DNA of 53,242 bases, taken from sequence record KY608966; one strand, 5' to 3'. Positions 1 through 49,724 of the stretch are shown one piece after another. This stretch comes from Escherichia phage CF2. Position numbers and translations under genes: made by a program. The notes beneath the pieces are model-generated. The model searched no databases. It was not told the origin of the DNA and saw only the letters and a program-made list of their open reading frames with translations. Each line of letters starts with the position of its first letter. Within the stretch, counting starts at the first letter, position 1.

Positions 1-306
1 AAAAAAATTTACGCCGGCGAAAAATAATAAAAAACCGGATTGATAAATAAATCTGTAGACGTTTACACGACCTTTATATAGATGTTATAATAACTATCTA
101 AAGTCCAGCAAAGGTATTGTAATGAATATACAACAGGAAGTACAAGCTGAATTTGATTATGTTGATGGCATGTTGTATCGTAAACATAGCCACGGTAACG
201 TCAAGCAAGGCGATAAATTTGGTACCGTAGTACCAGCAGGATACATTGAAGGCTTTTTCAAAAATAAGAAGACGTCTTTGCACGTTCTTGTCTGGCAATG
301 GCACAA
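1..306. repeat. Terminal direct repeat, left copy (same as 52937..53242)
   Basis: Bases 1-306 read identically at 52937-53242. The repeat covers a promoter and the first 185 nt of the HNH gene. Confidence 0.9.
62..91 (+). promoter_or_regulatory. sigma70-type promoter TTTACA-18-TATAAT (upstream of HNH gene)
   Basis: -35 TTTACA at 62-67 and -10 TATAAT at 86-91. A second copy lies at 52998-53027. Confidence 0.6.
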
Positions 307-622
307 TGGTGAAATACCGGAAGGTTATGTAGTAGACCACAAGGACCGCAATAAACTCAATTGTAAAATTGATAACTTACGCCTTGCTACAGCTAGCCAG
401 AATCAAGCTAATCGTGGGGTTAATTATAATAGTACAACAGGCGTCAAAGGTTTGCAGGTAACAACACAGCGTGGTTATACTTATTATGCTGCTAAGATAA
501 CTGTCAACGGTAAAAGATTGAGAAAAACCTTTAAATATACGGAAGAAGGCAAAGAATTAGCTATTGCCTGGCTTCAAGAACAACGTCAAAAATTACACGG
601 AGAATTTGCTTGTGATAACTAG
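122..622 (+). CDS. HNH homing endonuclease with AP2-like DNA-binding domain
   Basis: 166 aa. HNH core 'GYVVDHKDRNKLNCKIDNLRLATASQNQAN', then an AP2-like segment 'GVKGL..YYAAKITVNGKRLRKTFKYTEEGKELA'. Confidence 0.8.
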   Translation: MNIQQEVQAEFDYVDGMLYRKHSHGNVKQGDKFGTVVPAGYIEGFFKNKKTSLHVLVWQWHNGEIPEGYVVDHKDRNKLNCKIDNLRLATASQNQANRGVNYNSTTGVKGLQVTTQRGYTYYAAKITVNGKRLRKTFKYTEEGKELAIAWLQEQRQKLHGEFACDN

Positions 623-1052
623 AGCGTCAATTAGAGCGAAAGGACAGAACTTTGAGCGCAAAATGGCTAAGAAGTTCAATAGCTCGTTTGGATTAACTGT
701 TGAGCGCAATCTTCAACAGTCTATTAATGGCGGGGATGACTTGCTGGGTGTACCGTTTTTCAGTGTTGAACTGAAGAAGCACAATACTAAGTCTATCGGA
801 ACATGGTGGAGACAGTGTGCGGCATCGGCAAAGGCTCAGAACAAGATGCCAGTGCTTATATACGAACTACCAAGAAAACAGCCTACCGTGGTGATGAATA
901 AGGCTGATGTGATTGACTGTTTTCCAAGTGGCACGACTTTTAACGAGGCATCGAACCGCCTCTTTGTGGGTCTGGTAGAATTAACATGGGAACAATTTTG
1001 CCGGGTCTACAACTATTACGTTGCGCCCGGCACTCAATATCACGTCAATTAA
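612..1052 (+). CDS. PD-(D/E)XK nuclease, Holliday-junction-resolvase-like
   Basis: 'KGQNFER' and 'GGDD..FSVELKK' (D..ExK) motifs. The frame is open from 564. GTG 612 has GGAG 10 nt upstream, but the start is uncertain (ATG 663 is an alternative). Confidence 0.5.
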   Translation: MITRASIRAKGQNFERKMAKKFNSSFGLTVERNLQQSINGGDDLLGVPFFSVELKKHNTKSIGTWWRQCAASAKAQNKMPVLIYELPRKQPTVVMNKADVIDCFPSGTTFNEASNRLFVGLVELTWEQFCRVYNYYVAPGTQYHVN

Positions 1053-1234
1053 TCTTGTTTCAGCTCGTTACAAATAACACGCTGATTTTTGGCGGGGATA
1101 ATACCAAGATTCAGTAGGGTGTATGGACTATCAGCGACGCATTGTTCAACGGTAGTCCATTCAGGTTTGGATTCAACAATTTCGTAATTGCAGTCGTGAG
1201 TTGCTATACATGTTGCCAGGATTAAGCCAATCAC
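1049..1234 (-). CDS. Small putative lipoprotein or secreted protein
   Basis: 61 aa. GTG start with GGAG 7 nt upstream. N-terminus 'MIGLILATC' resembles a signal peptide with a lipobox. The start overlaps the upstream stop as GTGA. Confidence 0.45.
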   Translation of the reverse strand: MIGLILATCIATHDCNYEIVESKPEWTTVEQCVADSPYTLLNLGIIPAKNQRVICNELKQD

Positions 1235-1410
1235 AAGTAATCTCCATCAACCAGAAACTCAAACAATTGGTTGTAAACGTTGCAACCTTTAGCGAAAGAG
1301 CTTTCAGCAGGTTTACCGTCGCGGACAATCATCATATACTCACCGCCATGGATGTCCACCCAGTATTGCATGCCACCTTTGACCGGATTACGTTGCAGAA
1401 ATTTAAACAT
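1231..1410 (-). CDS. Hypothetical small protein (59 aa, below the ORF-track cutoff)
   Basis: Manual translation gives MFKFLQRNPVKGGMQYWVDIHGGEYMMIVRDGKPAESSFAKGCNVYNQLFEFLVDGDYL. AGGAG lies upstream, and TAATG and GTGA overlaps couple it to both neighbours. Confidence 0.45.
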   Translation of the reverse strand: MFKFLQRNPVKGGMQYWVDIHGGEYMMIVRDGKPAESSFAKGCNVYNQLFEFLVDGDYL

Positions 1411-1655
1411 TATTTACTCCTGACTCCAAGTTTATTCAATAGCCACACTGTCATGTCAACCCAGGTTAACGGTACAGTTTTCGGGGGTTGATAATCCCAG
1501 CAGCTTGCAGTTCTTTGTATTTCTGCTTGGCGCCGCTCCGCTTCGCGTAATACCGCATCGTCAGAAGTGCCGGCAGAAAAAAGATCGGTAACACCAGATA
1601 AATCGCGTTGATTAACACGTCGAGCAATGTCATATAAATCATCCTTAGAAAACAT
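1410..1655 (-). CDS. Hypothetical early protein
   Basis: 81-aa ORF in the leftward operon. Confidence 0.55.
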   Translation of the reverse strand: MFSKDDLYDIARRVNQRDLSGVTDLFSAGTSDDAVLREAERRQAEIQRTASCWDYQPPKTVPLTWVDMTVWLLNKLGVRSK

Positions 1656-1770
1656 AAGCCAATACCATAAGAATTATCAGAAAGATCCCAACCAGCTTCC
1701 TCATAGCCCGACCTTCAGCATATGCAGGATTCACAACAGAATACTCAACAACATGTTTACAGCGGACCAT
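1645..1770 (-). CDS. Hypothetical 41-aa membrane peptide
   Basis: Manual translation gives MVRCKHVVEYSVVNPAYAEGRAMRKLVGIFLIILMVLAYVF. GGAGG lies 5 nt upstream and the C-terminus is hydrophobic. Confidence 0.35.
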   Translation of the reverse strand: MVRCKHVVEYSVVNPAYAEGRAMRKLVGIFLIILMVLAYVF

Positions 1771-1789
1771 AAGGCCTCCACTTGTGGGT

Positions 1790-1834
1790 TAATTCAATCA
1801 TGAGGACTTTTGGCAAATCCTCATTGTTGAATCA
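1790..1834 (-). promoter_or_regulatory. Bipartite intercistronic RNA hairpin HP0 (candidate RNase III or RNA-stability site)
   Basis: Upper stem 1800-1806/1818-1824 (atgagga/tcctcat). Lower stem aattcaa/ttgaat, separated from the upper stem by 2x2 internal loops. Confidence 0.5.
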
Positions 1835-2032
1835 CTCAATCATTATCTGTACTACTATTATACACTCTTTATTGAAGCGGGTAAACACCTTTCCACCATT
1901 GGTGCGTTTAGCTCCGGACTTTAGAGCTGACTGGCACCAGACATGCCACTCCTCAACTGTCAAGAATTTTTGCTCAGCTTTGGGTGGTAGTCCATTGGCA
2001 AGGTCTACCGTAGTAAATTTGACTAGTGGCAT
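1832..2032 (-). CDS. Hypothetical early protein
   Basis: 66 aa. ATG 2032 overlaps the upstream TGA as TGATG. Confidence 0.5.
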   Translation of the reverse strand: MPLVKFTTVDLANGLPPKAEQKFLTVEEWHVWCQSALKSGAKRTNGGKVFTRFNKECIIVVQIMIE

Positions 2033-2421
2033 CACTTGACCTCAAATTTTGACTCGTCATATTCCGGATCAGTCACGTCCCGGGTCGCACAATTTTTGAT
2101 TGCATCCCAGTAACGTTGGGCATCATCGCCATCGACATAAACTGTCCAGTGGCCGTAACCACCTTCAAATCTGTCCCAGGCTTGTTCCCAGACTTTGCCA
2201 TCTTCCAGCTTGTACCAAGTTGGACGACTGTCAAACTCGCGGATTGGATGGTACCCCATCAAAGGATTCATCAGGTCAATAATGTCTTCCCGACTAATCT
2301 CCTGGTTCTCCCACAACACCGTCATGAATTGCTCAAACTTGAAGGCGTTTGGCAGAATTTTGATGACTTCACCATCACAATATACGGTATAGGTGCCATC
2401 TTCGCATTTTGCACTGTACAT
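2032..2421 (-). CDS. Hypothetical early protein
   Basis: 129 aa from ATG 2421, preceded by 'aggagagagaaac'. The longer track start lies inside hairpin HP1. Confidence 0.65.
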   Translation of the reverse strand: MYSAKCEDGTYTVYCDGEVIKILPNAFKFEQFMTVLWENQEISREDIIDLMNPLMGYHPIREFDSRPTWYKLEDGKVWEQAWDRFEGGYGHWTVYVDGDDAQRYWDAIKNCATRDVTDPEYDESKFEVK

Positions 2422-2438
2422 GTTTCTCTCTCCTATTG

Positions 2439-2495
2439 ATATAATTTCAATCATGAACTATCACAACTTTGGATAGTTCATTGTTGAAACTATAC
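2439..2495 (-). promoter_or_regulatory. Bipartite intercistronic RNA hairpin HP1
   Basis: Perfect 10-bp upper stem 2453-2462/2472-2481. Lower 10-bp stem 2441-2450/2484-2493 contains a G.U pair only in the minus sense. Confidence 0.6.
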
Positions 2496-2663
2496 TAACT
2501 TTGTTGCGATCTGAATTGTCAGCCGGAAGTCTTCCATCAAGTTATCAAACTCTTTGGAACCGCCAACCGCATCAGATATTTGGTCTTTCACAATTTGGGC
2601 ATTTGATTCCAGTAATTCAATCAGGTGCGCCAATTCGTCTTCAGTCAATTTCAGATCTTTCAT
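2490..2663 (-). CDS. Hypothetical small acidic early protein (paralogue of 2923..3081)
   Basis: 57 aa from ATG 2663, with an ATGA overlap. N-terminus 'MKDLKLTEDELAHLIELLE' resembles 'MLKIKLTKDQAMALRDMMIELE'. Confidence 0.55.
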   Translation of the reverse strand: MKDLKLTEDELAHLIELLESNAQIVKDQISDAVGGSKEFDNLMEDFRLTIQIATKLV

Positions 2664-2917
2664 AATGCATCCACCCAAGCCATAACTTTTGCCAGTCTTA
2701 CAACGTCTTCATGGTCCCGCTCGCCATCAGAAAATTCGCTGGCGATGATACCCATAATTGACGCCAGATTCATGTTGATGATGTAGGCGTGTTGGCGCAC
2801 TTCATCAATTCCTGAATCTATCACCAGTTCCGCAAATTCTTGTGAACCTTCATCCCATTCAGCCCAATACTGCTCAGCATAAAAGTCCAGTTCTTTTTTC
2901 ATCTCAATATCAGTCAT
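2660..2917 (-). CDS. Hypothetical acidic early protein
   Basis: 85 aa, rich in Asp and Glu. GAGGAG lies 8 nt upstream. Confidence 0.6.
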   Translation of the reverse strand: MTDIEMKKELDFYAEQYWAEWDEGSQEFAELVIDSGIDEVRQHAYIINMNLASIMGIIASEFSDGERDHEDVVRLAKVMAWVDAL

Positions 2918-2922
2918 TTTGA

Positions 2923-3081
2923 TTACTCCTCAGAACCTGAAAATTTGTCGTCAATGGCTTCAACAATATAATCAAGAGTTGAAGTGTGAGAACTATCAGA
3001 AAAAGTGCCCATCTTCTCTAACTCAATCATCATATCCCGCAAGGCCATCGCCTGGTCTTTGGTCAGTTTGATTTTAAGCAT
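2923..3081 (-). CDS. Hypothetical small acidic early protein
   Basis: 52 aa from ATG 3081, preceded by 'caggagagaaac'. Confidence 0.5.
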   Translation of the reverse strand: MLKIKLTKDQAMALRDMMIELEKMGTFSDSSHTSTLDYIVEAIDDKFSGSEE

Positions 3082-3101
3082 GTTTCTCTCCTGTTGATTG
3101 T

Positions 3102-3151
3102 GAATAATTTCAATTGATGGCACTACTTGAGTGCCATCTCAAAAATTACTC
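3102..3151 (-). promoter_or_regulatory. Bipartite intercistronic RNA hairpin HP2
   Basis: Upper stem 3116-3123/3131-3138 (gatggcac/gtgccatc). Lower stem 3102-3110/3143-3151. Confidence 0.55.
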
Positions 3152-3718
3152 TTCAGTAGTTTCTTGTTCTTCAATTTCAGGTTTTTCTTCAGCTTCAGGT
3201 TTTTTGCCTGTTACTGATTTGCCGTCAGTCACTTTACCAGATTTTACATCATTACGGTAGTATGACATATATGACTGGATAACACGTTTTGCTCTAATAT
3301 CATCCGCTTCCATTCCGCAAGCTTTCATCGCATCAGCGAGTGCCAATTTGGAATCTTCTTTATCCATCAAGTTGTAATCTTTGAACACCAGATAGCAAGT
3401 ATCTTTAGTTGATGGACCAGATGACGATTTGCGAGAGCCACCAGCAGATGCTCGTGTTGTCGCAACTTTGACTTCTTCAACTTCCAGTTGGTTCAGCTCG
3501 TCAAACAAAGCCTTCACCAGCACTTCTTTAGAGTCTTTGACACTTACAGAACTTTCATCATTAAGCGACTTAATCATCTTAATGATCTGGTTATTGGCAA
3601 AGTACTGAAGACTATCCATCTGCACTACAATAGTGCCAAGACTTTCAGTAGTCAGACCAGATTTCACAGACTCGACAGAAAAAGCGGAAGTCAGGTAAAC
3701 GTAGTTGATAGTTGTCAT
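3146..3718 (-). CDS. Hypothetical early protein with acidic C-terminal tail
   Basis: 190-aa ORF with a Ser/Gly linker and an 'EEKPEIEEQETTEE' tail. Confidence 0.7.
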   Translation of the reverse strand: MTTINYVYLTSAFSVESVKSGLTTESLGTIVVQMDSLQYFANNQIIKMIKSLNDESSVSVKDSKEVLVKALFDELNQLEVEEVKVATTRASAGGSRKSSSGPSTKDTCYLVFKDYNLMDKEDSKLALADAMKACGMEADDIRAKRVIQSYMSYYRNDVKSGKVTDGKSVTGKKPEAEEKPEIEEQETTEE

Positions 3719-3766
3719 TTGATGTATCCTCGTTGATAGAATTTTTGATAGGTGTCAATCCTTGAC

Positions 3767-3820
3767 AAGTAATTCCAATCATGACAACTTTTATCAAGTT
3801 GTCATTGTTGGAAATTACTT
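3767..3820 (-). promoter_or_regulatory. Bipartite intercistronic RNA hairpin HP3
   Basis: Perfect 10-bp upper stem 3781-3790/3796-3805. Lower 12-bp stem 3767-3778/3808-3820 has one bulge. Confidence 0.6.
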
Positions 3821-4117
3821 CGCGCTTGCGTTTTCAACAGCTTGTACGACTTTCAACAAATGCCTGAAGTCATCATGATAAACTTCATTAAAGCCATCTG
3901 CCGCAAAGTTTTCGCCAATTAAGATCAGTCTTTCGCGGACCAAGTCAATCAAGAGTTTATTGTCAGTTATTTCAGCACCTGTAATAAGTTCAACAAATAA
4001 TTGCTGTACGTTATCATAACAGATGTTGCTTTCAATACACACTTGGCGCATGTCTTCAACTATTGACATGATTGTGACTTGCATTTCTACGTCAGAAGTG
4101 ATGTTATTCAGTTTCAT
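3815..4117 (-). CDS. Hypothetical acidic early protein (first gene of leftward operon)
   Basis: 100-aa ORF. Confidence 0.65.
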   Translation of the reverse strand: MKLNNITSDVEMQVTIMSIVEDMRQVCIESNICYDNVQQLFVELITGAEITDNKLLIDLVRERLILIGENFAADGFNEVYHDDFRHLLKVVQAVENASAK

Positions 4118-4131
4118 AATAGTTACCTTTG

Positions 4132-4186
4132 TATTAGTTTCCAGGCGTGACTACTGATACCAATAGTCACTGGTTGAAACTATTAC
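4132..4186 (-). promoter_or_regulatory. Bipartite RNA hairpin HP4 in the leader of the leftward operon
   Basis: Upper stem 4147-4153/4164-4170. Lower stem tattagtttcc/tgaaactatta. Confidence 0.55.
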
Positions 4187-4333
4187 TAGTGTTACTATCA
4201 ACAAGAAACATGTTACCAAATTGTTAAAGAGCGGTCTGGTACTATTCGACCAGGTAAAGTTATTATTTGCGCATCTTGACGACACGCGCCAGACAAGACG
4301 CTTGACACATTCATCATTCGTCTTGATGTAATA

Positions 4334-4362
4334 ATTATAGGCCAGTCAATCAATGTTGTACA
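4334..4362 (-). promoter_or_regulatory. Candidate leftward early promoter TGTACA-17-TATAAT
   Basis: The minus strand reads TGTACA (4357-4362), a 17-nt spacer, then TATAAT (4334-4339). Confidence 0.45.
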
Positions 4363-4476
4363 TAAAAGAATTGCAAGTTTATGCAAGTTTTTAGAAATGA
4401 TAATCACTTGCGATTGAGAGTGGTTCTCGTATGCAATTGATATAGTTTCACATGTAATTACTCAATCCAAAATGGT

Positions 4477-4530
4477 CGGCAGGGGTTATAATCACATAGG
4501 GGTGCCACTTAAAGGAGCCGGCGAAATTAT
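4477..4530. repeat. Imperfect direct repeat A1 (about 55 nt)
   Basis: 'cggcagggg..aggggtgccac..aggagccggcgaaatt' aligns with A2. The GCCGGCGAAA core also occurs at 14-23. Confidence 0.6.
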
Positions 4531-4538
4531 TTCTAAAA

Positions 4539-4562
4539 ATATAATTTCAATCTGAATTATAG
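4539..4562 (-). promoter_or_regulatory. Minimal hairpin HP5 (lower-stem consensus only)
   Basis: ataatttca-atc-tgaattat. It has the same flank consensus as HP0-HP4 but no upper stem. Confidence 0.35.
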
Positions 4563-4653
4563 ACGCTTTGTGTTATAACGGCCGAAGTAGTTCATACGGT
4601 AATTGTATCAATCGCAATAGTTACCAGGGTAATCGTTTCAATCGAAATAGGTG

Positions 4654-4716
4654 CGGCGGGGGGTAATTTCGCAGGGGTGCTACCTGCCAGGAGCCAGCGG
4701 AATTTTTTTATTTTTT
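4654..4716. repeat. Imperfect direct repeat A2, ending in a T-run
   Basis: 'cggcgggggg..aggggtgctac..aggagccagcggaattttttt'. It contains the hairpin gcagg-ggtgcta-cctgc. Confidence 0.6.
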
Positions 4717-4937
4717 GGTATTTTCTCCTTATCAGGACCAATCATCATCAGAGTAACACGGCAGGAGCTAACCTTTTGCTTATCACAATAATAAGTGAAG
4801 CCCCTCTAAAATTTTTTTATATTTTTCGGAAATTGTGTAGACACTCACTAAAAAGTGGTGTACTTTCTCTCCTCCACGCGCTATCATTAATGTGAATCAT
4901 CAAACGGCCTCACGGTCTCCTACTTGTGGGTAACATT

Positions 4938-5423
4938 ATGAAAATTGTTCAATTAGAGCCATATCCGCCTCAATTGGCTATCGTTTGCAGCGAAAAAGAG
5001 CACGAAGAGCTCCAAAAACTGATGGATTTGCCTGATTTTGGCAACTGGAATGACCGGGAAACACGTAATGCATCTACCTTTACATTCTCTCGCGTTAACT
5101 ATCCGTACCTGTTAATCGTCGTCGAACTGTACCACCCGGACGACCTGAAGTACAACACCATTTCCCACGAAGGCATTCACGTAATGTCATCGCTGATGAA
5201 CTATGTAGGGCTTAAATACGACCCAGAAAACGATGAATGGTACGCATATCAGCATGATTTCATCGTAAATGCCATTTGTAAGGCCCATGACGAGTATATA
5301 GAGCGCCAAAAAACGCCAAAAACTAAGCCAAAAATCGAAACAGGTAACCATCCTGCTATACTGCCACAAGACGTAATGAACTCGCTTTTGACTGACACTA
5401 CTGGGGACTTTTTAGGTGATTAA
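4938..5423 (+). CDS. HExxH-motif protein (putative small Zn-metallopeptidase-like)
   Basis: 'SHEGIHV' motif. ATG 4938 is the likely start, although the frame is open from GTG 4926. This is the first gene of the rightward operon. Confidence 0.6.
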   Translation: MKIVQLEPYPPQLAIVCSEKEHEELQKLMDLPDFGNWNDRETRNASTFTFSRVNYPYLLIVVELYHPDDLKYNTISHEGIHVMSSLMNYVGLKYDPENDEWYAYQHDFIVNAICKAHDEYIERQKTPKTKPKIETGNHPAILPQDVMNSLLTDTTGDFLGD

Positions 5424-6090
5424 TATAATCTTCGCAATGGGCCAAAATGGGGAATTCGGGTTGTCCCCGGAGTTTATGAAGCATCAGGTTGACTCGTGTA
5501 AGACCATGGAAGAGGTCCGTGCGCTTCCTAAATCGGGTCTACCCTGGAAATGTCCGTCAGACATGCTCTTTTTCAGGACTATGACTAATTCAGTTGCGAC
5601 AGAACCAGGCTATAATGCATATCAGCAACTACGTGGACAGTTCCCAAATGACCAGTTGCGAAACATGATAGCAGATGTAACGGTAAAAATGGTAGGGCAT
5701 AGTGTATTGTTAGCCGGTCGTAACACGTATATGACTATGAGTCTGCCTATGTCAGCCCACAGAATACTGCTGCCGGTATCTCGCCAGATTATGGCTTCAG
5801 AAGGCTACAATAATTTGGGTGAGATGGCAGCAGACCTTGAATCCAGAGGTACTGACGTCTGGATTGTAGGTGGTGCCGAATTGATACTTTCGGCCCTTGA
5901 AGAGCATGCAAAAGACTTACTCCGTATCGACAACATGTTTATCAGTACAATCAAGCAATCAGGTCCAAGTGATATTTTAATGGATCGTAGCAAATTAATG
6001 ATGTACATTGATAGCGACTTCACATATAATGATGAATATGTTGATAACAAACAAGTTCTGATACAACGGTATAGGAGTTTACACAAATGA
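5416..6090 (+). CDS. Dihydrofolate-reductase-like protein with insertions
   Basis: 'MINIIFAM', 'LPWKCPSDMLFFRTMT', 'LLAGRNTY' and 'VWIVGGAEL' parallel FolA 'MISLIAAL', 'MPWNLPADLAWFKRNT', 'VIMGRHTW' and 'MVIGGGRV'. Confidence 0.65.
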   Translation: MINIIFAMGQNGEFGLSPEFMKHQVDSCKTMEEVRALPKSGLPWKCPSDMLFFRTMTNSVATEPGYNAYQQLRGQFPNDQLRNMIADVTVKMVGHSVLLAGRNTYMTMSLPMSAHRILLPVSRQIMASEGYNNLGEMAADLESRGTDVWIVGGAELILSALEEHAKDLLRIDNMFISTIKQSGPSDILMDRSKLMMYIDSDFTYNDEYVDNKQVLIQRYRSLHK

Positions 6091-6593
6091 ACATCATAAT
6101 CGAGGGTCCCGATAATGCAGGAAAAAGTACACTTATTGAGTTCCTTAAATCTCGTACTGGCCGCAATGTTATTCATAATACTGTTGATAAGGACCCCGAA
6201 TCGGTCATGGCTAAACAGGCCAAAGAAAACGCGTTGGAAGGCGATTGCATTTATGATCGTAGCGCTGTTATATCTGAGTATATCTATTGCCTGGTTCTTC
6301 AACGTACGCCTGTCATCAATATTAATGTATCACATGTAGCAGATATGTGCGACAACGCCATCGTTATCTTTTGTATGCCGCCTGTTGAAAAGGTACTGGC
6401 AACTACAAAAGACGAAATGCCTGGTGTTGTGGAAAATCTTGAGGCGTTATACAATCAGTATGACAACCTCATTGACGAGCTGGTTATGATGAGTAAGCAG
6501 TTCTTCATCTATGACTGGACTGTTGAAGAAGACGGTCCTGAAGCAGTTCTAGAATACATCAACGAACGTATTAATAAGGAGTGGAACAAATGA
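6087..6593 (+). CDS. P-loop dNMP kinase (thymidylate-kinase-like)
   Basis: Walker A 'IEGPDNAGKST' and Tmk-like 'YDRSAVISEY'. Coupled to the upstream gene by an ATGA overlap. Confidence 0.7.
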   Translation: MNIIIEGPDNAGKSTLIEFLKSRTGRNVIHNTVDKDPESVMAKQAKENALEGDCIYDRSAVISEYIYCLVLQRTPVININVSHVADMCDNAIVIFCMPPVEKVLATTKDEMPGVVENLEALYNQYDNLIDELVMMSKQFFIYDWTVEEDGPEAVLEYINERINKEWNK

Positions 6594-7309
6594 GCCCAGT
6601 ATACAATAGCACAATTACACTGTCAGCAACCGTAGGAGACGTCAACAAGACTGTTACTGTGGGTTCAACTAACCCGAACCTGTCAGGCGAAGACCTGCTG
6701 CGCCTGGCCAAACGTGCTCTTGAAGATAACGAAGTGACTGGTACTGAAGGCGTCAGCATCGAAATTAACGTCGAAGGATGTCCGCACAGCATCAGTATTG
6801 CTACCTCTTCATTGCCGGATGATGAAACTCGTGAACAGCTGGAGACAGACAAGTTCAACGACGAGCTGGAATATCGCACTGGTGAGATGTTCAGCAATGC
6901 GTTAAACTGGTATCTGTGCAAAGCTTCAGGCTACACCGGTGCTCCTATGTCAGACCGTATGTTAGCTGATATGTCAGCACGTGAAATTGCTAAAGGCTGG
7001 GCGCATGTACAGATGCTACAGGAGCGTATCTGCAAACTGGAAAGCTGCAATAAAGATGCGTCTGAGCTTATTACTGCCTATAAGCGACAGATTAACGACC
7101 TGCAGCAACTAATGGGCAAACGCGCTGAAGAATATGAGGCTGAGATTCGTAGCCTTAACGGTACAGCTGTTGCTAACAACCGTGCTTTCAGCGAAGAGCG
7201 TAAAGCGCTTATCGCCCAGCGTGACGCTGAAAAACGTCGTGCAGACGACCTGGCAGACCGTCTCAACTTTATCCGTAAGCATATGGATGCTATGGAAGGG
7301 GTAATCTGA
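6590..7309 (+). CDS. Hypothetical protein with C-terminal coiled coil
   Basis: 239 aa from ATG 6590, with AAGGAG 8 nt upstream and an ATGA overlap. Confidence 0.6.
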   Translation: MSPVYNSTITLSATVGDVNKTVTVGSTNPNLSGEDLLRLAKRALEDNEVTGTEGVSIEINVEGCPHSISIATSSLPDDETREQLETDKFNDELEYRTGEMFSNALNWYLCKASGYTGAPMSDRMLADMSAREIAKGWAHVQMLQERICKLESCNKDASELITAYKRQINDLQQLMGKRAEEYEAEIRSLNGTAVANNRAFSEERKALIAQRDAEKRRADDLADRLNFIRKHMDAMEGVI

Positions 7310-7599: not shown

Positions 7600-7715
7600 A
7601 AACCGGATAAATATAAAGGCGTCTAAGCTAGTTCTTCATCTATATAAGCTACTTATTCGCCTTTCTACTGTAGACTTTCTCATCATCTCTCTAGACACTT
7701 CATTTTTATATTCTG

Positions 7716-7744
7716 TTTACTTACTTCGCGTAACTCGTTATAAT
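7716..7744 (+). promoter_or_regulatory. sigma70-type promoter TTTACT-17-TATAAT (terminase operon)
   Basis: -35 at 7716-7721 and -10 at 7739-7744. Confidence 0.65.
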
Positions 7745-11088: not shown

Positions 11089-11117
11089 TTTACTTTCGGT
11101 TTACCTGGCTATATAAT
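11089..11117 (+). promoter_or_regulatory. sigma70-type promoter TTTACT-17-TATAAT (scaffold/capsid)
   Basis: -35 at 11089-11094 and -10 at 11112-11117. Confidence 0.65.
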
Positions 11118-11974: not shown

Positions 11975-11977
11975 GTT

Positions 11978-18463: not shown

Positions 18464-18492
18464 TTTACTTAACCGAGGCGCCAGCCTATAAT
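18464..18492 (+). promoter_or_regulatory. sigma70-type promoter TTTACT-17-TATAAT with its -10 inside an 8-bp GC palindrome
   Basis: -35 at 18464-18469 and -10 at 18487-18492. The palindrome gcgccagc/gctggcgc lies at 18478-18485/18495-18502. Confidence 0.65.
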
Positions 18493-34077: not shown

Positions 34078-34093
34078 TGGCCCCTTTATTTAT
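34065..34093. terminator. Bidirectional terminator between convergent late (+) and replication (-) units
   Basis: Stem ggggcc/ggcccc (34066-34071/34079-34084), flanked by an A-run and a T-run. Confidence 0.7.
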
Positions 34094-34317
34094 TAGCGTT
34101 TTCCTTTCAGCTCGTTATACTGCGCACATGCAGCACACAGCACTGTACCGGGTAAAAGCTGACGTCGTTTTTCTTCAATGTCTTCCCCACACTGGTAGCA
34201 CGTCAGCGGGCTTACTCCGGTGTATCTTACTCTGTTCGATAGTGCTGCGTCCCGGGCAACTTGTTCAGCTTCAGAAGCCATATCAGTAATGTCCGATGTG
34301 CGCATAGTCTCAATCAT
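34093..34317 (-). CDS. TraR/DksA-family C4 zinc-finger protein
   Basis: 'CYQCGEDIEEKRRQLLPGTVLCAACAQ'. Confidence 0.8.
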   Translation of the reverse strand: MIETMRTSDITDMASEAEQVARDAALSNRVRYTGVSPLTCYQCGEDIEEKRRQLLPGTVLCAACAQYNELKGKR

Positions 34318-40129: not shown

Positions 40130-40140
40130 GATCAGCGCTA

Positions 40141-40608: not shown

Positions 40609-40656
40609 AATTTTTTCCTCGTCTACAGGGCTTAATGTTTGTTCGTTACGTGAGTT

Positions 40657-44606: not shown

Positions 44607-44678
44607 TGTTTGGTATCCTGTTTAAGTTTAATTTAATTTCGTTTAACGCTTTACCGGCAGCGTTCGGCCGTGATGCTT

Positions 44679-44713: not shown

Positions 44714-45598
44714 TTATTCGCTGGTTCCTTTCTCAGCTTGAGCGGCTTTCTTCGCCATCCAAGCTTGGTGCTTCTCTTTCGATTCGTCTGAACCGATTTT
44801 AGTAAGCTGCACGTTCGGGTCTTCGTTCTGCATCTGTTCTGCAGCTCGACCTGTCAGAAGCAGGTAACTGTCTGACTCCGGATGGTAGTACCACAGCTGG
44901 TAAGGATGATAGCCTTGTAGCTTATCATAAATCCAACCAAGATCTGCAGGTTCACGTGCATCCAGCTCACGACCTGGTGCGTTACGGCACTTAGCTTCCC
45001 ATTGGTAGTCAGGCTGGGTCTGGATGTAGCGCTCGCTGTTACCGTTGGCGTCAGGCGCAGTCATACGTAAAGCAAGCACCGCATCCATCAGGTACGGCAA
45101 CTGCTTAGGTAGCTGTTGGCCAGGCATAAGAGGTGAGTACAGCATTGCACCAGTAACCTCGTCCTTGTTCTTCTCAAGCTTGCACAAGTATGCAACGCTG
45201 AAAGGCAGGTCACGGAACTGACGCATGATGTACATCATCTTGTCGTTGGTGTTACCATACGCCTGTCGTTTGTCATTAACCTGCGACTTCTCATAGTCCA
45301 GACAAACTTCAGCCACATCTGACAGCGAATCGAAAATCAGATGTTCATACTTCTGCGCATCCTTACTTTCGGTAAGCCATTTGTACAACGCCAGAATGTC
45401 GTTGAACGTATTGATTGGTGTAGAGTCGATGTCAGCATCTGCAATCGACATCAAACCGCCTTCAGCGTTAATAACAAGAACCTTATCGTGAGGCAAGGTC
45501 TTAGCCAGGCTGGTTTTACCAACACCTGATGCGCCGTAAATAGCGACCTTAGGTCGCTTATTTTCTACGGCTTGTTTAGTAGATACAATCTGAACCAT
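44714..45598 (-). CDS. Sak4-like / AAA_24 RecA-fold ATPase (recombination)
   Basis: Walker A 'IYGASGVGKTSLA' and Walker B 'HLIFDSLS'. Confidence 0.7.
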   Translation of the reverse strand: MVQIVSTKQAVENKRPKVAIYGASGVGKTSLAKTLPHDKVLVINAEGGLMSIADADIDSTPINTFNDILALYKWLTESKDAQKYEHLIFDSLSDVAEVCLDYEKSQVNDKRQAYGNTNDKMMYIMRQFRDLPFSVAYLCKLEKNKDEVTGAMLYSPLMPGQQLPKQLPYLMDAVLALRMTAPDANGNSERYIQTQPDYQWEAKCRNAPGRELDAREPADLGWIYDKLQGYHPYQLWYYHPESDSYLLLTGRAAEQMQNEDPNVQLTKIGSDESKEKHQAWMAKKAAQAEKGTSE

Positions 45599-45888: not shown

Positions 45889-46335
45889 CTATTTTACACT
45901 AACAGCTTGACACGATAGCCGCGACAAACCGAGGTTGGCTATGACGCCATCGAGCAATACTCCTGCATGTTCTTCGTTGTATGCTTCTACCCACAAAGGG
46001 ATGGTGACGCCCTTCAGATGGTCGCTATACACGTTGAACCTATATACCTGTTTGTGTGCTTTGTCAACACGTACAACAGTAAGGTTACCATCTTCGTAAG
46101 GAGGAAGCTCAACGCCTTTCTTACTCCAGAAGTTACGGAACTCAGCACTATTAACAATGCCGTGTACAACACGTTCTGTAAGCTCTGTTTTGAGGTCAGC
46201 ACGTGCCTTTGTACTGATAAAGAAACGACAAGAGAAGAAAGCATTGACGTTTAACACATCAACCGCGTACACAACGTTATGCTCTTCAGCAGTTGGTGCT
46301 TTATAAACAATATATTTAGTTTTGAACAGGTCCAT
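45889..46335 (-). CDS. Hypothetical protein
   Basis: 148 aa from ATG 46335, with GGAGAG 5 nt upstream. Confidence 0.55.
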   Translation of the reverse strand: MDLFKTKYIVYKAPTAEEHNVVYAVDVLNVNAFFSCRFFISTKARADLKTELTERVVHGIVNSAEFRNFWSKKGVELPPYEDGNLTVVRVDKAHKQVYRFNVYSDHLKGVTIPLWVEAYNEEHAGVLLDGVIANLGLSRLSCQAVSVK

Positions 46336-46383
46336 AGTACTCTCCAGGGAGGAAGACTGGCGGGCTTGCACCCGCCTAAGTTA

Positions 46384-47289
46384 TTACAGCAGTTCTGCTT
46401 TCAGGGCAGCGATACCATCAAGCAATGCTTTGATGTCCGGATTAGACGCTGCCAGGTCTGCAACAACAGACTGGCGACGACGTTCCAGCTCTTTCTCAAC
46501 TTCCAGGTCGAGGCGTGCTGACGCTTCACGCAGTAAGTCTTCAACCTGCTGACGACGCTGATACTTGTTAAAGTCAGGCACATCAACCAGCCATTTGAGA
46601 GTTGCAGTGTTGTAGCCAGAAGTATTGGCTGCACTTACAGACACAACATCAACAAGCTTGGTACCGTTAAGCTCCGGATAATTAACATTGCGAACGTCAA
46701 CAACAGCTTTGTCACCTACACTTACTTTGCCGATGTACTTGTAAGTGTACACACGACCATTCGGTTCAAACTTAACACCTACAAACTTCAGTTTGTCGTC
46801 AGCAATAACTTCTTCCTCAACTTTGAAGCTGATTGCAGTGTTCTTGACAGGTGCAGCCGCTTTGAGCTTAGCAACCATGTACTGTTCGGAATGAGACGGA
46901 CGGCACAGACGGAAGACGTCTTCATTGTAGGTCAGCCAGTTACCGGTCTCATCCACGCATGCAATCTGATTAGTGCCATCCAGTGAACGAACACCAGGGC
47001 GATTCTTCTCAACACGATACAGCTTACCTTCTTTCAGGTTAGCGTAAGAACGGCGAGCGATACCCCAGTTGTGTTTTTCAGATTCGTACTTAGCGAAACG
47101 ATCAACGCTGAAGTTCTGCTTCAGACCACGGTCGTCAATTACCCATAAGTTATCGTAAGCACCGCCGAAAGAACCCAGGTTGGCATACACTTTGCCCTGC
47201 GTCAACAGGGAAGTGTTTCCCTCGTCAACACAGATAACAAAACCCAGAGCTTCGTGTGCTTTACCGCTGCGGTCAAATACTGTAGTCAT
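46384..47289 (-). CDS. Hypothetical protein with internal repeats and C-terminal coiled coil
   Basis: 301 aa with recurring 'GK(V/L)Y..' beta-rich units. Confidence 0.6.
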   Translation of the reverse strand: MTTVFDRSGKAHEALGFVICVDEGNTSLLTQGKVYANLGSFGGAYDNLWVIDDRGLKQNFSVDRFAKYESEKHNWGIARRSYANLKEGKLYRVEKNRPGVRSLDGTNQIACVDETGNWLTYNEDVFRLCRPSHSEQYMVAKLKAAAPVKNTAISFKVEEEVIADDKLKFVGVKFEPNGRVYTYKYIGKVSVGDKAVVDVRNVNYPELNGTKLVDVVSVSAANTSGYNTATLKWLVDVPDFNKYQRRQQVEDLLREASARLDLEVEKELERRRQSVVADLAASNPDIKALLDGIAALKAELL

Positions 47290-47371
47290 TTCTTGTTTCC
47301 TTGTATACCAGTTTGATTGTATGCCAGAGTTATTCCCTGCGCATGTGCTTTATTGCTTAACCGTTAAAGAC

Positions 47372-47400
47372 ATTATATCATTAGTGAGTGGTGACGTACA
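47372..47400 (-). promoter_or_regulatory. sigma70-type promoter TGTACG-17-TATAAT
   Basis: The minus strand reads 'gtgTGTACGtcaccactcactaatgaTATAAT'. Confidence 0.55.
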
Positions 47401-47403
47401 CAC

Positions 47404-47694
47404 TTATTTTAAGGCAGAAGTGCAAATAGCATCACACAAACAATAATGAGCACGGTCGTAGTCTTCAAACAAGAACACTTCGCCATTGGCGACAACTTCA
47501 TTACTGTTGACCTGCAGGCTAATACCTGAATGCAGAAGCACATCCATAGCCTGGTCCTTATTCTTGTACGGGTCCCAAATAAGCTGGAAGCCTGACCCAC
47601 AAAGGAGACATCCCTTGAGCTCCGGAAGAGTTGACTCCTTCACAGTCACATTACAAATCTTAGCCAGTTTAGCACGAGAATCGAGAGTACTCAT
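47404..47694 (-). CDS. Hypothetical protein
   Basis: 96-aa ORF with an ATGA overlap to the upstream gene. Confidence 0.55.
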   Translation of the reverse strand: MSTLDSRAKLAKICNVTVKESTLPELKGCLLCGSGFQLIWDPYKNKDQAMDVLLHSGISLQVNSNEVVANGEVFLFEDYDRAHYCLCDAICTSALK

Positions 47695-47981
47695 TTACGT
47701 TTACCTTTACGTTTGTGTAGCGGAGTATATGTTTTCTTTGACACGCCAAACATGGCCGCATATGTACCGACTTCTTTCTTTGTTGGCTTATCCACAATCT
47801 CGTCAATCACGATTAAGTCATGGTTGATATTGCGAAAGACTTCAGCCGCTCTTTTCTCAACAGGAGTAAAGTCAATAACCAGCTCTTTGCCTATCAGGCT
47901 TTCTTTGAACTTGTCAAACAGCCATTTGTCTCGCGGACCAGGATTGCCCATAAACATAACACGCATCTGCTTATTGTCCAT
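47691..47981 (-). CDS. Hypothetical protein with basic C-terminus
   Basis: 96-aa ORF ending '..HKRKGKRK'. Confidence 0.5.
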   Translation of the reverse strand: MDNKQMRVMFMGNPGPRDKWLFDKFKESLIGKELVIDFTPVEKRAAEVFRNINHDLIVIDEIVDKPTKKEVGTYAAMFGVSKKTYTPLHKRKGKRK

Positions 47982-48049
47982 GGATGATATACCCCGTTAT
48001 TTGTGTTGCCAGGTACAAGCCGTATACCACACACCCAACGAGTATGGCA

Positions 48050-48388
48050 TCAAGAATCAGATGAGCTATCTTCACGTTTGACCTCCGGAAGTAATGAGTT
48101 ATCAACCTTGATCAGTACGTTACGGCTGTTAACCACTTCCAGGCTGGTGCCATCCTTTTTGTGGGTTACACGAATAAATGCAACACCCTCAGCCTGTGCC
48201 TGCTCGATAGCTTTATCCAGCACAACATTATCCTGTACCATATGGCGTACGCGAGGAAGGATATTGCAAAGAGGTTCCATCTCATCCATTCCTGCAGTAC
48301 GCATGACTGACTTGAGAATGCCAAGATGATGCTTATAACGGTCTTCAAGATTATACTTCTTGCTGTTATGCTTTAGTTCTGATGCCAT
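48050..48388 (-). CDS. Hypothetical protein
   Basis: 112 aa from ATG 48388, with GGAG 6 nt upstream. Confidence 0.55.
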   Translation of the reverse strand: MASELKHNSKKYNLEDRYKHHLGILKSVMRTAGMDEMEPLCNILPRVRHMVQDNVVLDKAIEQAQAEGVAFIRVTHKKDGTSLEVVNSRNVLIKVDNSLLPEVKREDSSSDS

Positions 48389-48396
48389 GTAAGTCT

Positions 48397-48427
48397 CCAA
48401 AAGTTAAGGGGCTTGAGCTAAGCCCCG
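48397..48427 (-). terminator. Rho-independent terminator or attenuator
   Basis: Stem ggggctt/aagcccc (48408-48414/48420-48426). The minus-sense tail is 'ttaactttt'. Confidence 0.5.
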
Positions 48428-48432
48428 TTTAA

Positions 48433-48882
48433 TTACTCGGCTTCTTCCGTAGCTGCCGGGGTGAATGTTACAGTCGGAATACCAGGCGAGGTCTTCACAA
48501 CAGGGTCGACGATAGCCAGTTGTTCTGGTGTCAGGTTACGGTATGCAGTAACTGACATTTCATATTTGGTTTTAAACAGCTTGGCAACAACAGTCTTCGG
48601 TAACTTCTTCATTACGTCAGGCACAAGCTTCTGGTCTAGTGAGCGGTTAACCTTCTGCTCAACCTTGAGTTTACCAGGTACGCCATGCAGGCTAAACTCA
48701 ACCGTTTGTGTACCTTCTTTACCACGATTGATAATCATGTCACGTTCAAGACGTGCTTTAATGGTCCGGCGCAACGTCTCCTGGTCAGCTTTCGCTTGTG
48801 CCATCCAGCGGTTCAGATTCGCCAGCTTGTCGTACAGCTGTTCCGTGTCCATCGATTCCAGTTCTTGTGGGTTCAATGCCAT
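48433..48882 (-). CDS. Hypothetical protein (coiled-coil N-terminus)
   Basis: 149 aa from ATG 48882, with GAGGA upstream. Confidence 0.55.
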   Translation of the reverse strand: MALNPQELESMDTEQLYDKLANLNRWMAQAKADQETLRRTIKARLERDMIINRGKEGTQTVEFSLHGVPGKLKVEQKVNRSLDQKLVPDVMKKLPKTVVAKLFKTKYEMSVTAYRNLTPEQLAIVDPVVKTSPGIPTVTFTPAATEEAE

Positions 48883-49153
48883 CAGTTGTTTCCTCAGGTT
48901 GCATGTGCATAGTTGCACCAATTAGTAGACAATAGTTATTGAACATTGTACGTAGTGCCTGGCCCGCAACAATATCCGTTATGTCTATTATACCACTTTT
49001 AGTGGTGACGCGTAAAGCTTTTTCTTTCTTTGTTTTTTCCACGAATGCAATGCTGATGATTTCTTCCGCATGAATTACGTGGATAGTACCTGCAAACTCA
49101 CCAGTCTTAGCTGGTGCCTGGTACACTAACGACATAGACGGTTGGTTACTCAC
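48785..49153 (-). CDS. Hypothetical protein (3' part overlaps a promoter and the next gene)
   Basis: GTG 49153 has AGGAG 7 nt upstream. It overlaps 48433..48882 by 98 nt, so the true extent is uncertain. Confidence 0.35.
   Translation of the reverse strand: MSNQPSMSLVYQAPAKTGEFAGTIHVIHAEEIISIAFVEKTKKEKALRVTTKSGIIDITDIVAGQALRTMFNNYCLLIGATMHMQPEETTDGIEPTRTGIDGHGTAVRQAGESEPLDGTSES
48987..49016 (-). promoter_or_regulatory. sigma70-type promoter TTTACG-18-(TGg)TATAAT
   Basis: The minus strand reads 'gcTTTACGcgtcaccactaaaagTGgTATAAT'. Confidence 0.6.
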
Positions 49154-49163
49154 TTAATTACTC

Positions 49164-49601
49164 CTATTTATATAAGTCCATCCAGTTACGATACTCATCA
49201 TAGAACCGGTCAAACTCGTTTTTGGTGAGTGCAATAGCAACACCATTTACCAGATGCATGGTTCTTGTTTTGATGTTGACATACATGACGTTGCTGTACG
49301 GGAACAAGCTACCGTCATTGTCAGTGAAGTAAGTCGGTGTAATATGAAGCGCATCGCGCAATGCAACCAGCGCTTCAACAGCTTCTGCATGACCGTCACG
49401 GCGGAATGTCATACAAGGCGGTGCACCGTCTTCGTCCTGGGTACCGCGCAAAGTAAGGTACACAGTTTCAGCAACATCATTGTGTACGACTACGCTGATG
49501 TCAACGATGTCACTGGTACGGAAAGTAACAAAGTGCTGTACAATTACCTGTTCGTCGGTATTAGGACTGACGCCCTGAAAGGTCTTGAGTGTGTGAAACA
49601 T
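49164..49601 (-). CDS. Hypothetical protein (first gene of the leftward replication-side unit)
   Basis: 145 aa from ATG 49601, with AAGGAG 8 nt upstream. Confidence 0.6.
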   Translation of the reverse strand: MFHTLKTFQGVSPNTDEQVIVQHFVTFRTSDIVDISVVVHNDVAETVYLTLRGTQDEDGAPPCMTFRRDGHAEAVEALVALRDALHITPTYFTDNDGSLFPYSNVMYVNIKTRTMHLVNGVAIALTKNEFDRFYDEYRNWMDLYK

Positions 49602-49632
49602 TGGTTGTATCTCCTTAACAGAATGTAAGTCT

Positions 49633-49661
49633 ATTATGTATATAAAGGAGGGGAAAGTAAA
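49633..49661 (-). promoter_or_regulatory. sigma70-type promoter TTTACT-17-CATAAT
   Basis: The minus strand reads 'ctaTTTACTttcccctcctttatataCATAAT'. It is divergent from the promoter at 49695. Confidence 0.55.
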
Positions 49662-49694
49662 TAGATATAAATGTATAAAATACATAAAAGTCTA

Positions 49695-49724
49695 TTTACT
49701 CTGGTTTAATAACGTGTATATAAT
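49695..49724 (+). promoter_or_regulatory. sigma70-type promoter TTTACT-18-TATAAT
   Basis: -35 at 49695-49700 and -10 at 49719-49724. Confidence 0.6.

Follow-up and report, generated by a model that had tools for sequence, protein, structure and literature searches.

Organization of the genome and its promoters

The DNA analysed here, called the window, is the 53,242-nucleotide sequence of Escherichia phage CF2 (sequence record KY608966). It is a complete Rosemountvirus (BP63-like) genome with about 19 elements that resemble promoters of the host sigma-70 RNA polymerase and that, by comparison across genera, can be separated into two classes, designated A and B. Since positions 1-304 are identical to 52939-53242, the window is read as a single genome of 52,938 bp with an overlap of 304 bp; the promoter found at position 62 (P62) and the copy at 53000 are one and the same sequence. 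The first 25 kb are matched by 63 phage records, the best with about 97% identity over about 97% of the query. The best matches are the Rosemountvirus phages BP63, vB_SenM_PA13076, swi3 and SD350 of Salmonella and Escherichia, and the alignment with BP63 covers positions 4112-52819 at 98.2%. The gene order (Table 1) was taken from the BP63 annotation and from our own checks of open reading frames (ORFs) and domains.

The pattern T.TAC.-N16-18-TATAAT occurs at 16 sites of the unique genome, against 0.39 +/- 0.59 expected and a maximum of 3 in 200 dinucleotide-preserving shuffles; one third of the 46 TATAAT hexamers of the genome have such a -35. The spacer is 17 or 18 bp long at every site, the -10 hexamer is TATAAT at 16 sites and CATAAT, TATATT or TATCAT at three more, and the -35 hexamers, of the form T(T/G/A)TAC(N), match TTGACA at 4-5 of 6 positions, TTGACA itself being present at no site. 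The elements sit directly upstream of genes and in the same orientation.

The relatives compared were the Loughboroughvirus phages ZCSE2 and SE4, Erwinia phage SOI901, Salmonella phages vB_SE1_KM (KM) and KE25, Escherichia phage fHy-Eco03 and a metagenomic uncultivated virus genome (UViG), whose DNA is about 70-73% identical to the window where it can be aligned. The UViG contig was the one new lineage provided by a helicase-based search of IMG/VR; the other helicase matches were 23-47% identical, and those inspected were phages of high-GC hosts with no comparable promoters. A search based on Sak4 returned known isolates only, and SPHG1 was left out because it looks rearranged or misassembled. 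Orthologous promoter positions were found by the same pattern in every relative (5-6 lineages, at least 3 genera), with the hexamers and some flanking positions kept and the spacers diverging, which is good comparative evidence for functional sites. P62, P4334, P4859, P40657 and P49633 are also conserved, with a slightly weaker -10 in some lineages. In five relatives P62 has TACAAT as its -10, the ortholog of P4334 has TATTAT in ZCSE2 and CATAAT in SOI901, and the CATAAT of P49633 is kept in all lineages. P4859 is conserved in BP63, ZCSE2 and SOI901, P40657 in five relatives, and P7716 has orthologs in SE4, SOI901 and KM. P6002 is conserved in ZCSE2 and SE4 but lies within coding sequence, and is a possible internal promoter. 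P4334 is the promoter of the leftward operon of small genes, probably of pre-early or early type, and P49695 is the right-hand member of a divergent pair with P49633. These elements are probably genuine promoters of the host sigma-70 polymerase, a reading that is judged below jointly with the two-class explanation.

A preliminary description of this DNA had announced seventeen host-type promoters and listed 15 of them. Each of the 15 was found at its place and on its strand, with a T(T/G/A)TAC-type -35, a spacer of 17-18 bp and TATAAT (CATAAT at 49633), upstream of the genes that had been named (HNH_3, terminase, scaffold, adaptor, Ig protein, sheath and primase; helicase, single-stranded DNA-binding protein (SSB), Sak4-like protein and the polymerase block). 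The sites 40657(-), 1857(-), 6002(+) and 4859(+) were not in that list, and our count is about 19 instead of seventeen. The assignment to the host sigma-70 type agrees with the near-consensus hexamers, the spacers, the non-random number of sites and their conservation.

An additional strict promoter-like site, TTTAC[AT]-18-TATAAT aactc, is present in the thymidylate synthase region of SOI901 (3228), KM (30818), fHy-Eco03 (30199) and the UViG (10672). Its counterpart in the window, 38430-38457, has degenerated to TTTACA-16-TATCCT.

Two classes of promoters

The orthologous promoter group was used as the unit of comparison, with six groups from the replication block (class A) and five from the morphogenesis genes (class B). 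Class A promoters have an A-rich UP-like tract at about -48 to -39, usually a G at -36, T(T/G)TAC, often TGn, TATAAT and an A/T-rich discriminator, with the upstream consensus aAaAaAg..G TtTAC. Class B promoters have TTTAC(T/A), usually preceded by (C)TA at -38 to -36, TATAAT and a G/C-rich discriminator, and are devoid of the UP-like tract and TGn; the T(T/G)TAC -35 is common to both. The number of A residues in the 10 nucleotides at about -48 to -39 was 5.0-7.4 in all six class A groups versus 0.8-4.8 in class B (p = 0.004 by the Mann-Whitney test, and 0.009 when the window is excluded), and the G+C count of the discriminator, defined as the 6 nucleotides after the -10, was 1.3-2.4 versus 3.0-5.4, two disjoint ranges (p = 0.008). 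TGn is consistent in three of the six class A groups and in none of the five class B groups. Four class A groups have the G at -36, the other two having C or T preceded by G. The GC contents of the two gene blocks are nearly equal (47.4% and 46.0%), and when compared with random hexamers of their own block, class B discriminators are enriched in G/C (p = 0.005) and class A discriminators depleted (p = 0.004); base composition therefore does not explain the contrast.

A log-odds classifier built on flanking positions only, with the hexamers excluded, was right for 10 of 11 ortholog groups in leave-one-group-out validation, and placed the held-out promoters 40657, 4859 and 62 in class A and 49695 and 49633 in class B. 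By these comparisons the two classes exist, are conserved across genera and can be separated. They are compositional and positional tendencies and not two sharp motifs. In all 11 defining ortholog groups the split between the classes is the split between morphogenesis and DNA metabolism. Class goes with function and not with strand, and the match is imperfect. P4859, on the plus strand, has the A-tract, the G before the -35 and the A/T-rich discriminator, and together with the A-like P62(+) it indicates that class A is not a feature of the minus strand.

The two sequence classes of the preliminary description are thus real, although not as they had been defined. Its class B motif, ATTTACT-17/18-TATAAT, is exact at four sites (0 expected); the sequence is GTTTACA at 62, GTTTACT at 7716 and ATTTACA at 13006, and the orthologs read TTTACA or TGTACA, so that ATTTACT is a lineage-specific marker. 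The same can be said of tCACCAC and AAGTGG, proposed as marks of class A, in whose place the relatives show TTATCAC, CATACCAC, AGTGA, ATGG or GGGG. Of the proposed association with orientation and function, function holds in part and strand does not, in view of P4859, and two members change place: site 62, listed as class B, scores A-like, and 4334, listed as class A, is ambiguous (Table 1).

Table 1. Promoters, spacer dyads, gene blocks and TraR-like gene of the window. Log-odds values (bits) are from the flank-only classifier, positive towards class A and negative towards class B.
Feature	Position	Strand	Class or type	Sequence	Log-odds	Genes and remarks
P62	62..91	+	A-like	gTTTACA-18-TATAAT, TGn, A/T-rich discriminator	+9.8	duplicate 53000-53029; ~60 bp from left end of genome/direct terminal repeat; drives HNH and RusA; promoter in BP63 annotation
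P1857	1857..1885	-	ambiguous	gtgTTTACC-17-TATAAT	-1.8	within small leftward genes; ZCSE2 ortholog
P4334	4334..4362	-	ambiguous	TGTACA-17-TATAAT; no A-tract; TA before -35	-0.4	
P4859	4859..4887	+	A-like	AAAAAGTGG TGTACT-17-TATCAT taat	+4.9	before DHFR-like/thymidylate kinase block
P6002	6002..6030	+	ambiguous	TGTACA-17-TATAAT		inside DHFR-like ORF, just 5' of thymidylate kinase gene
P7716 (P_term)	7716..7744	+	B	ctgTTTACT-17-TATAAT CCCGAC	-23	drives 96-aa ORF, terminase large subunit, portal
P11089 (P_scaf)	11089..11117	+	B	CTATTTACT-17-TATAAT CCTTCA		drives scaffold and major head protein; orthologs in relatives
P13006	13006..13034	+	B	TTATTTACA-17-TATAAT CGGACT		right after terminator 12974-13001; drives adaptor/neck/tail; in BP63 annotation
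P18464 (P_Ig)	18464..18492	+	B	CTATTTACT-17-TATAAT		drives Ig-domain protein and major tail protein; in BP63 annotation
P21330	21330..21358	+	B	CCATTTACT-17-TATAAT GGCCGG		drives sheath and downstream tail genes; orthologs in relatives
P39490	39490..39518	-	A	CGTAAAAAGTGC TTTACC-17-(TGg)TATAAT AAGTTA		after terminator 39573-39546; drives nucleotide genes, DNA polymerase, TraR-like gene; in BP63 annotation
P40657	40657..40685	-	A	AAAAAAGGTG TTTACA-17-TATATT AACTCA	+13.9	drives 155-aa gene 40142-40609; in BP63 annotation
P42620	42620..42648	-	A	TTAAAATAAAAG TATACA-17-(TGg)TATAAT ATATGA		drives helicase; in BP63 annotation
P44679	44679..44708	-	A	CGAATAAAAGTG TTTACG-18-TATAAT AAGCAT		drives SSB, dCMP deaminase, Cas4-like exonuclease; in BP63 annotation
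P45856	45856..45885	-	A	GTAAAATAGTAG TGTACT-18-TATAAT ACATCT		drives small ORF and Sak4-like ATPase
P47372	47372..47400	-	A	TTAAAATAAGTG TGTACG-17-(TGa)TATAAT; TCACCAC present		drives 301-aa gene
P48987	48987..49016	-	A	GAAAGAAAAAGC TTTACG-18-(TGg)TATAAT AGACAT		drives DUF7173 gene
P49633	49633..49661	-	B-like	CTATTTACT-17-CATAAT	-9.0 (held out)	drives first replication-block gene 49164-49601
P49695	49695..49724	+	B	CTATTTACT-18-TATAAT GAGAGC	-14.4 (held out)	drives 110-aa ORF and primase
P48987 dyad	49006-48992		spacer dyad	ACCACT/AGTGGT		p = 0.025
P45856 dyad	45882-45866		spacer dyad	ACTTAC/GTAAGT		p = 0.03
P44679 dyad	44706-44683		spacer dyad	TACGCCA/TGGCGTA		p = 0.004
P42620 dyad	42640-42625		spacer dyad	ACCAC/GTGGT		
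P39490 dyad			spacer dyad	TACCAC/GTGGTA		this lineage only
HNH/RusA unit	HNH_3 122-622, RusA 621-1052	+	genes			ORF/domain checks
Small genes of unknown function	1049-4117	leftward	gene block			
Non-coding region	4118-4938		non-coding			~800 bp
DHFR-like/thymidylate kinase block	4939-7599	rightward	gene block			DHFR_1 match; thymidylate kinase per BP63
Morphogenesis and lysis genes	7.7-34 kb	rightward	gene block			
Replication, recombination, nucleotide block	49.6 to 34.1 kb	leftward	gene block			TraR-like gene at its end
Primase unit		rightward	genes			end of gene order
TraR/DksA-family protein	34093..34317	-	gene			74 aa; last gene of leftward replication block

The TraR-like protein and the search for regulators

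The ORF that had been noted as TraR/DksA-like is a real gene of this family. Its 74-amino acid product matches Pfam PF01258 zf-dskA_traR (6e-10), the PDB entry of TraR (6n57_M, 1.3e-6) and TIGR02419 (4.7e-14, with a score of 52.7 bits that is below the curated cut-off of 59.7). Its DxxDxA motif is the N-terminal D9-I-T-D12-M-A14, and both the cysteines C40/C43/C61/C64 of a C4 zinc finger and the arginines RR51-52, equivalent to R48/R49 of TraR, align with TraR. The DxxDxA motif, the arginine pair and the four cysteines are the features named as important in TraR homologs (PMC9239242). Judged by its sequence, the protein carries the features of the TraR family.

No match to a sigma factor, RNA polymerase, anti-sigma factor or DNA-binding protein was found by Pfam, PHROGs and NCBIfam among about 30 ORFs of unknown function, in agreement with the preliminary description, which had recognised no phage RNA polymerase or sigma factor. 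The 301-amino acid protein encoded downstream of P47372 gave no match in a sequence search of the PDB. The 'putative sigma factor' annotated in ZCSE2 (11447-12337) was considered as a candidate regulator and rejected: its ortholog in the window, 44714-45598, is a Sak4-like AAA_24 ATPase, and the name is a misannotation. The ZCSE2 record also mislabels the primase as 'anaerobic NTP reductase small subunit'.

A proposed kinetic explanation of the two classes

We propose that the genome is transcribed from host sigma-70 promoters of two conserved architectures that act as kinetic classes, and give this explanation as a whole, including the identity of the elements as promoters, a probability of roughly 0.55. 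The classes differ in the UP-like tract, contacted by the C-terminal domain of the alpha subunit, in TGn, contacted by sigma region 3, and in the discriminator, all of which are known to set recruitment and open-complex stability, so that class A would be strong and robust and class B more sensitive to modulators. Class A promoters would then be immediately active, as early or middle promoters, and class B promoters, with a plain -35 and -10, would form less stable open complexes that respond to secondary-channel factors, supercoiling and nucleoside triphosphate levels. A discriminator rich in A/T tends to mark promoters activated by DksA/ppGpp, and one rich in G/C those that are inhibited, prediction from the sequence remaining difficult. 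TraR and its phage homologs act alone, and their effect is set by promoter kinetics. The TraR-like protein would be made from the far end of an operon driven by class A promoters, and its most likely main role, by analogy with TraR and lambda Orf73, is to silence host promoters of the rRNA type, whose discriminators are G/C-rich. Any effect on the phage's own promoters would be expected to go against class B and to leave class A untouched or even help it, which would delay or tune late transcription and not switch the late genes on. The direction predicted by this analogy is opposite to the late-activator role suggested for the Loughboroughvirus phage S144 and implied by the preliminary description.

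Several observations weigh against this explanation. P_scaf (P11089), the least typical class B member, with an A-rich upstream region, was the group misclassified as A when left out; sites 1857, 4334 and 6002 are ambiguous to the classifier, and naive hierarchical clustering of the flanks did not recover the classes. Class B promoters also stand before the gene that opens the replication block and before the primase unit, so that function is tracked imperfectly. Their -10 hexamers are perfect and their spacing is optimal, and the complexes that they form may be stable even with a G/C-rich discriminator. The lambda homolog Orf73 acts mainly as an inhibitor of host ribosomal promoters and does little to the lytic promoters of lambda itself, and a regulator could be hidden among the more than 30 small ORFs to which no function is assigned. 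No transcription start site or transcriptome data for Rosemountvirus or Loughboroughvirus were found in the literature, and promoter activity and the early or late assignments are thus inferred here.

Inverted repeats embedded in the promoters

Five class A promoters of the window have inverted repeats of 5-7 bp in the spacer, with loops of 3, 5, 6, 10 and 11 nucleotides, and at four of them p was 0.004-0.03 in shuffles of the spacer only. No dyad was found at 47372 (p = 0.95), 40657, 4859 or 1857, and p was above 0.26 at each of the seven class B sites scanned (49633 was outside the scan). The CCAC..GTGG dyad previously described for class A is present at three sites; elsewhere in class A the dyads differ or are absent. 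Three class A groups have dyads in some lineages only.

At P42620 a 6-bp stem and the loop ATGGAA are kept across lineages while the arms read ACCAC/GTGGT, TATCAC/GTGATA or CGCGC/GCGCG. In this comparison 94% of the cells are paired and two pairs are changed on both sides. The stem at P44679, upstream of the SSB gene, is kept with little change, and those at P45856, upstream of the Sak4-like gene, are kept in a shifting register with no clean compensatory pair. At these three promoters the native 5' and 3' halves give longer stems than chimeras between lineages. A clearer structure is that of the class B promoter P_Ig, an 8-bp G/C-rich stem (18478-18485/18495-18502, GCGCCAGC ... GCTGGCGC; -15.7 kcal/mol) that holds the -10 TATAAT in a 9-nucleotide loop; it is not a terminator, and 100% of its cells are paired in 5 lineages, with 2-4 compensatory pairs resulting from changes seen in KM, fHy-Eco03 and SOI901. 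The covariation score was equalled by 3 of 500 shuffles at P42620 and likewise at P_Ig, a result that, with 5-6 lineages only, arises in 5-25% of unconstrained trees according to a warning of the counting tool. The sheath promoter P21330 is bracketed by CTGGCCA (21323-21329) and TGGCCGG (21358-21364), a repeat that is a perfect 7-8 bp in SOI901, KM and fHy-Eco03 and whose sequence is conserved with no covariation. A hairpin of the sense-strand RNA, considered because of G-T wobbles at P44679, P45856 and P_Ig, was rejected, the stem gain being 32 for the sense and 43 for the antisense strand.

Covariation of the promoter stems is therefore suggestive and no proof, and the repeats could be hairpins maintained by selection, either in read-through RNA, for processing or stability, or in DNA, as cruciforms or single-stranded structures linked to supercoiling or replication. 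The pairing and double-sided changes at P42620 and P_Ig and the advantage of native halves argue for this possibility, which we hold only tentatively: the lineages are few, the register shifts at P45856, three class A groups have no conserved dyad, the wobbles show no strand bias, and none of the stems, all short at 5-8 bp, is a terminator. Moreover, template-switch correction of quasi-palindromes could yield the same pattern with no function.

Alternative readings of the promoter classes

The two classes could tune the level of expression and not its timing, all promoters firing from the start of infection and the TraR-like protein acting on host promoters only. Perfect or near-perfect -10 hexamers with 17-18-bp spacers in both classes, the preference of Orf73 for host ribosomal promoters and the presence of class B before two genes that are unlikely to be late, the primase and the first of the replication block, are consistent with this reading. 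We consider it unlikely, since the split coincides with morphogenesis versus DNA metabolism in all defining groups and is conserved across genera, and since structural proteins, usually needed in bulk, have the architecture lacking UP and TGn.

Alternatively, class B may not be autonomous, and an unrecognised phage factor (an activator, a sigma-appropriation pair or an anti-sigma factor) could read (C)TA-TTTAC(T/A), CTGG/CCAG or TAGAC and switch the late genes on. Conservation across lineages extends to the (C)TA in front of the -35, and many small ORFs have no known function. CTATTTAC occurs 7 times versus 1.9 expected, with 4 copies at class B promoters, and CCAG/CTGG accompanies 5 of 6 class B groups and hardly ever a class A promoter; these k-mer contrasts carry no multiple-testing correction and may simply reflect G/C-richness. 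TAGAC has 59 copies in the genome, 9 of which, versus 1.6 expected, lie on the promoter strand between -60 and +90 of a -35 (examples are at 55-60, 4837-4842, 7670-7675, 7692-7696 and 40621-40626). The copy beside the -35 of P62 is kept in all lineages, as GTAGAC in 5 of 6 and as TAGAC in fHy-Eco03, and conservation extends to the copies upstream of P_term and of P40657. Over the whole genome neither TGTAGAC nor TCACCAC is enriched, and both are notable by position only. On paper the near-consensus elements with optimal spacing need no activator, the -35 hexamers of the relatives (TTTACA or TGTACA) are nearer to the sigma-70 consensus, and the domain searches of about 30 ORFs detected no DNA-binding, sigma or anti-sigma domain, all of which makes such a factor quite unlikely.

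A bolder version of the hairpin reading, in which the inverted repeats are structure switches that, together with the discriminators and the TraR-like protein, gate the host polymerase by the state of the DNA (supercoiling, replication) or by RNA read-through, appears improbable to us; if true, it would provide a temporal programme with no phage sigma factor or classical activator. Finally, it had been suggested that the CCAC..GTGG dyad could be an operator. If it were the site through which a dimeric repressor or activator of the phage controls the class A promoters jointly, the class A spacer p values, the location of TCACCAC at the same spot in three spacers (8 copies in the genome) and the presence of AGTGGNNTATAAT in 2 copies versus 0.03 expected would fit; this is very improbable, given that the arms differ within the window (ACCAC(T), TACGCCA, ACTTAC, TACCAC), that loop length and position are not fixed, that 3-4 of nine class A sites have no dyad, that CCAC/GTGG is not conserved in relatives and changes compensatorily at P42620, and that no candidate DNA-binding protein was found among the ORFs searched. 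Differing arms, loops of 3 to 11 nucleotides and sites with no dyad argue against a shared operator, and the repeats seem to fit promoter-specific structures or quasi-palindrome maintenance better.

Timing could also follow from the order of DNA entry as set by a terminal repeat. The direct terminal repeats of fHy-Eco03 are 3,699 bp long and include RusA and small leftward genes (PhageTerm; PMC8145870). The repeat is located at 46302-50000 of its sequence and corresponds to approximately 1-4400 of the window, with the ortholog of P62 about 45 bp inside it. The HNH/RusA and small-gene block of the window, with P62 and P1857, is probably terminally repeated as well, and P4334 probably lies within the repeat. 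This putative repeat may, by analogy with T5, be the first DNA to enter the cell; T5 is a precedent for terminal-repeat DNA entering first.

Other features of the genome

The HNH_3 gene (122-622), located between P62 and RusA, is absent from BP63 and looks like a homing-endonuclease insertion. Directly upstream of P4334, the non-coding segment 4364-4447 is very highly conserved in three genera and carries two copies of GCAAGT (4373-4378, 4383-4388) and, in inverted orientation, ACTTGC (4406-4411). Its role could be that of a site for a regulator, of an origin or of a repeat boundary. The non-coding region 4118-4938, conserved in parts in ZCSE2 and SOI901, further includes direct repeats of about 55 nucleotides (4477-4532, 4654-4708), a tandem pair of 30 nucleotides (4583-4642) and a 38-nucleotide imperfect palindrome (4119-4198). 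A strong bidirectional terminator hairpin (34063-34087) separates the convergent late (+) and replication (-) blocks, and terminator-promoter pairs are found at 12974-13034(+) and 39573-39490(-).

In SOI901, genes for tRNA-Gln and tRNA-Pro (5192-5352) stand where the window has a 450-bp stretch of low coding content (39700-40140); tRNA and Rfam scans of the window gave no matches. P48987 lies inside the ORF of BP63 gp73 (window equivalent 48786-49154), which overlaps gp72 by about 100 nucleotides; the gp73 ORF may be spurious or have a wrong start. The 5' leader of the SSB gene, 44607-44678(-), cacggccgaacgctgccggtaaagcgttaaac, shows conservation across genera, includes segments able to form stems and could serve as a translational operator, by analogy with that of T4 gene 32.

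Comparison with known systems

The general picture is not new. The BP63 RefSeq record NC_031250 annotates seven sites 'similar to TTGACA(N15-18)TATAAT' (62/53000, 13006, 18464, 39490, 40657, 42620 and 44679), and the analysis of S144 predicted 18 promoters of host type, recognised no phage RNA polymerase and proposed that a DksA-like protein controls the later genes (PMC7432712). As far as found in the literature, the separation into two classes, the contrast in UP-like tract and discriminator and the comparison of orthologs across genera are new relative to these two sources.

The closest likeness of class A is to the early promoters of T4, which have a UP/-35/TGn/-10 ('uber') organization with GTTTAC in the -35 region. 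Class A likewise has an A-rich upstream tract, a G at -36 beside T(T/G)TAC and TATAAT, with TGn consistent in three of its six groups, and would likewise be used by unmodified host E-sigma70 in front of pre-replicative genes. The differences are that the present phage is an unrelated one of 53 kb in which no Alt, MotA, AsiA or gp55 homologs were found, that TGn is present at about half of the class A sites, and that several of these have spacer inverted repeats, which are not mentioned in the descriptions of T4 early promoters that were consulted.

With the TraR/lambda Orf73 family, whose members bind in the secondary channel of RNA polymerase, the 74-amino acid protein shares the DxxDxA tip motif, the RR pair, the C4 zinc finger and its length, and with Orf82 of P2 a location in the early/replication operon. 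Its DxxDxA starts at residue 9, unlike that of TraR, which we take to start at residue 3. The G/C-rich discriminators of class B and the A/T-rich ones of class A parallel the contrast between inhibited and activated DksA/ppGpp promoters of E. coli, although rRNA and amino acid biosynthesis promoters differ from those of the phage, in which the -10 hexamers are of consensus sequence and the spacers optimal. The early promoters of the N4 virion RNA polymerase and the Frpo element of F are hairpin-dependent or single-strand promoters. In these, as here, inverted repeats overlap the promoter core; here they are short promoter-specific stems accompanied by full double-stranded -35 and -10 sigma-70 elements, and no virion RNA polymerase is encoded.

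Isolates of Rosemountvirus and Loughboroughvirus are widely obtained as candidates for biocontrol and therapy. What is gained for them is a conserved promoter map, the contrast between the classes in UP-like tract, TGn and discriminator, and a prediction of the direction in which the TraR-like protein acts. With about a third of the map already in the BP63 annotation and the general principle familiar from T4, T5 and lambda, the advance is incremental. If the kinetic explanation is true, these phages would be a natural case of gene ordering by promoter kinetics and a secondary-channel factor instead of a sigma factor or an activator.

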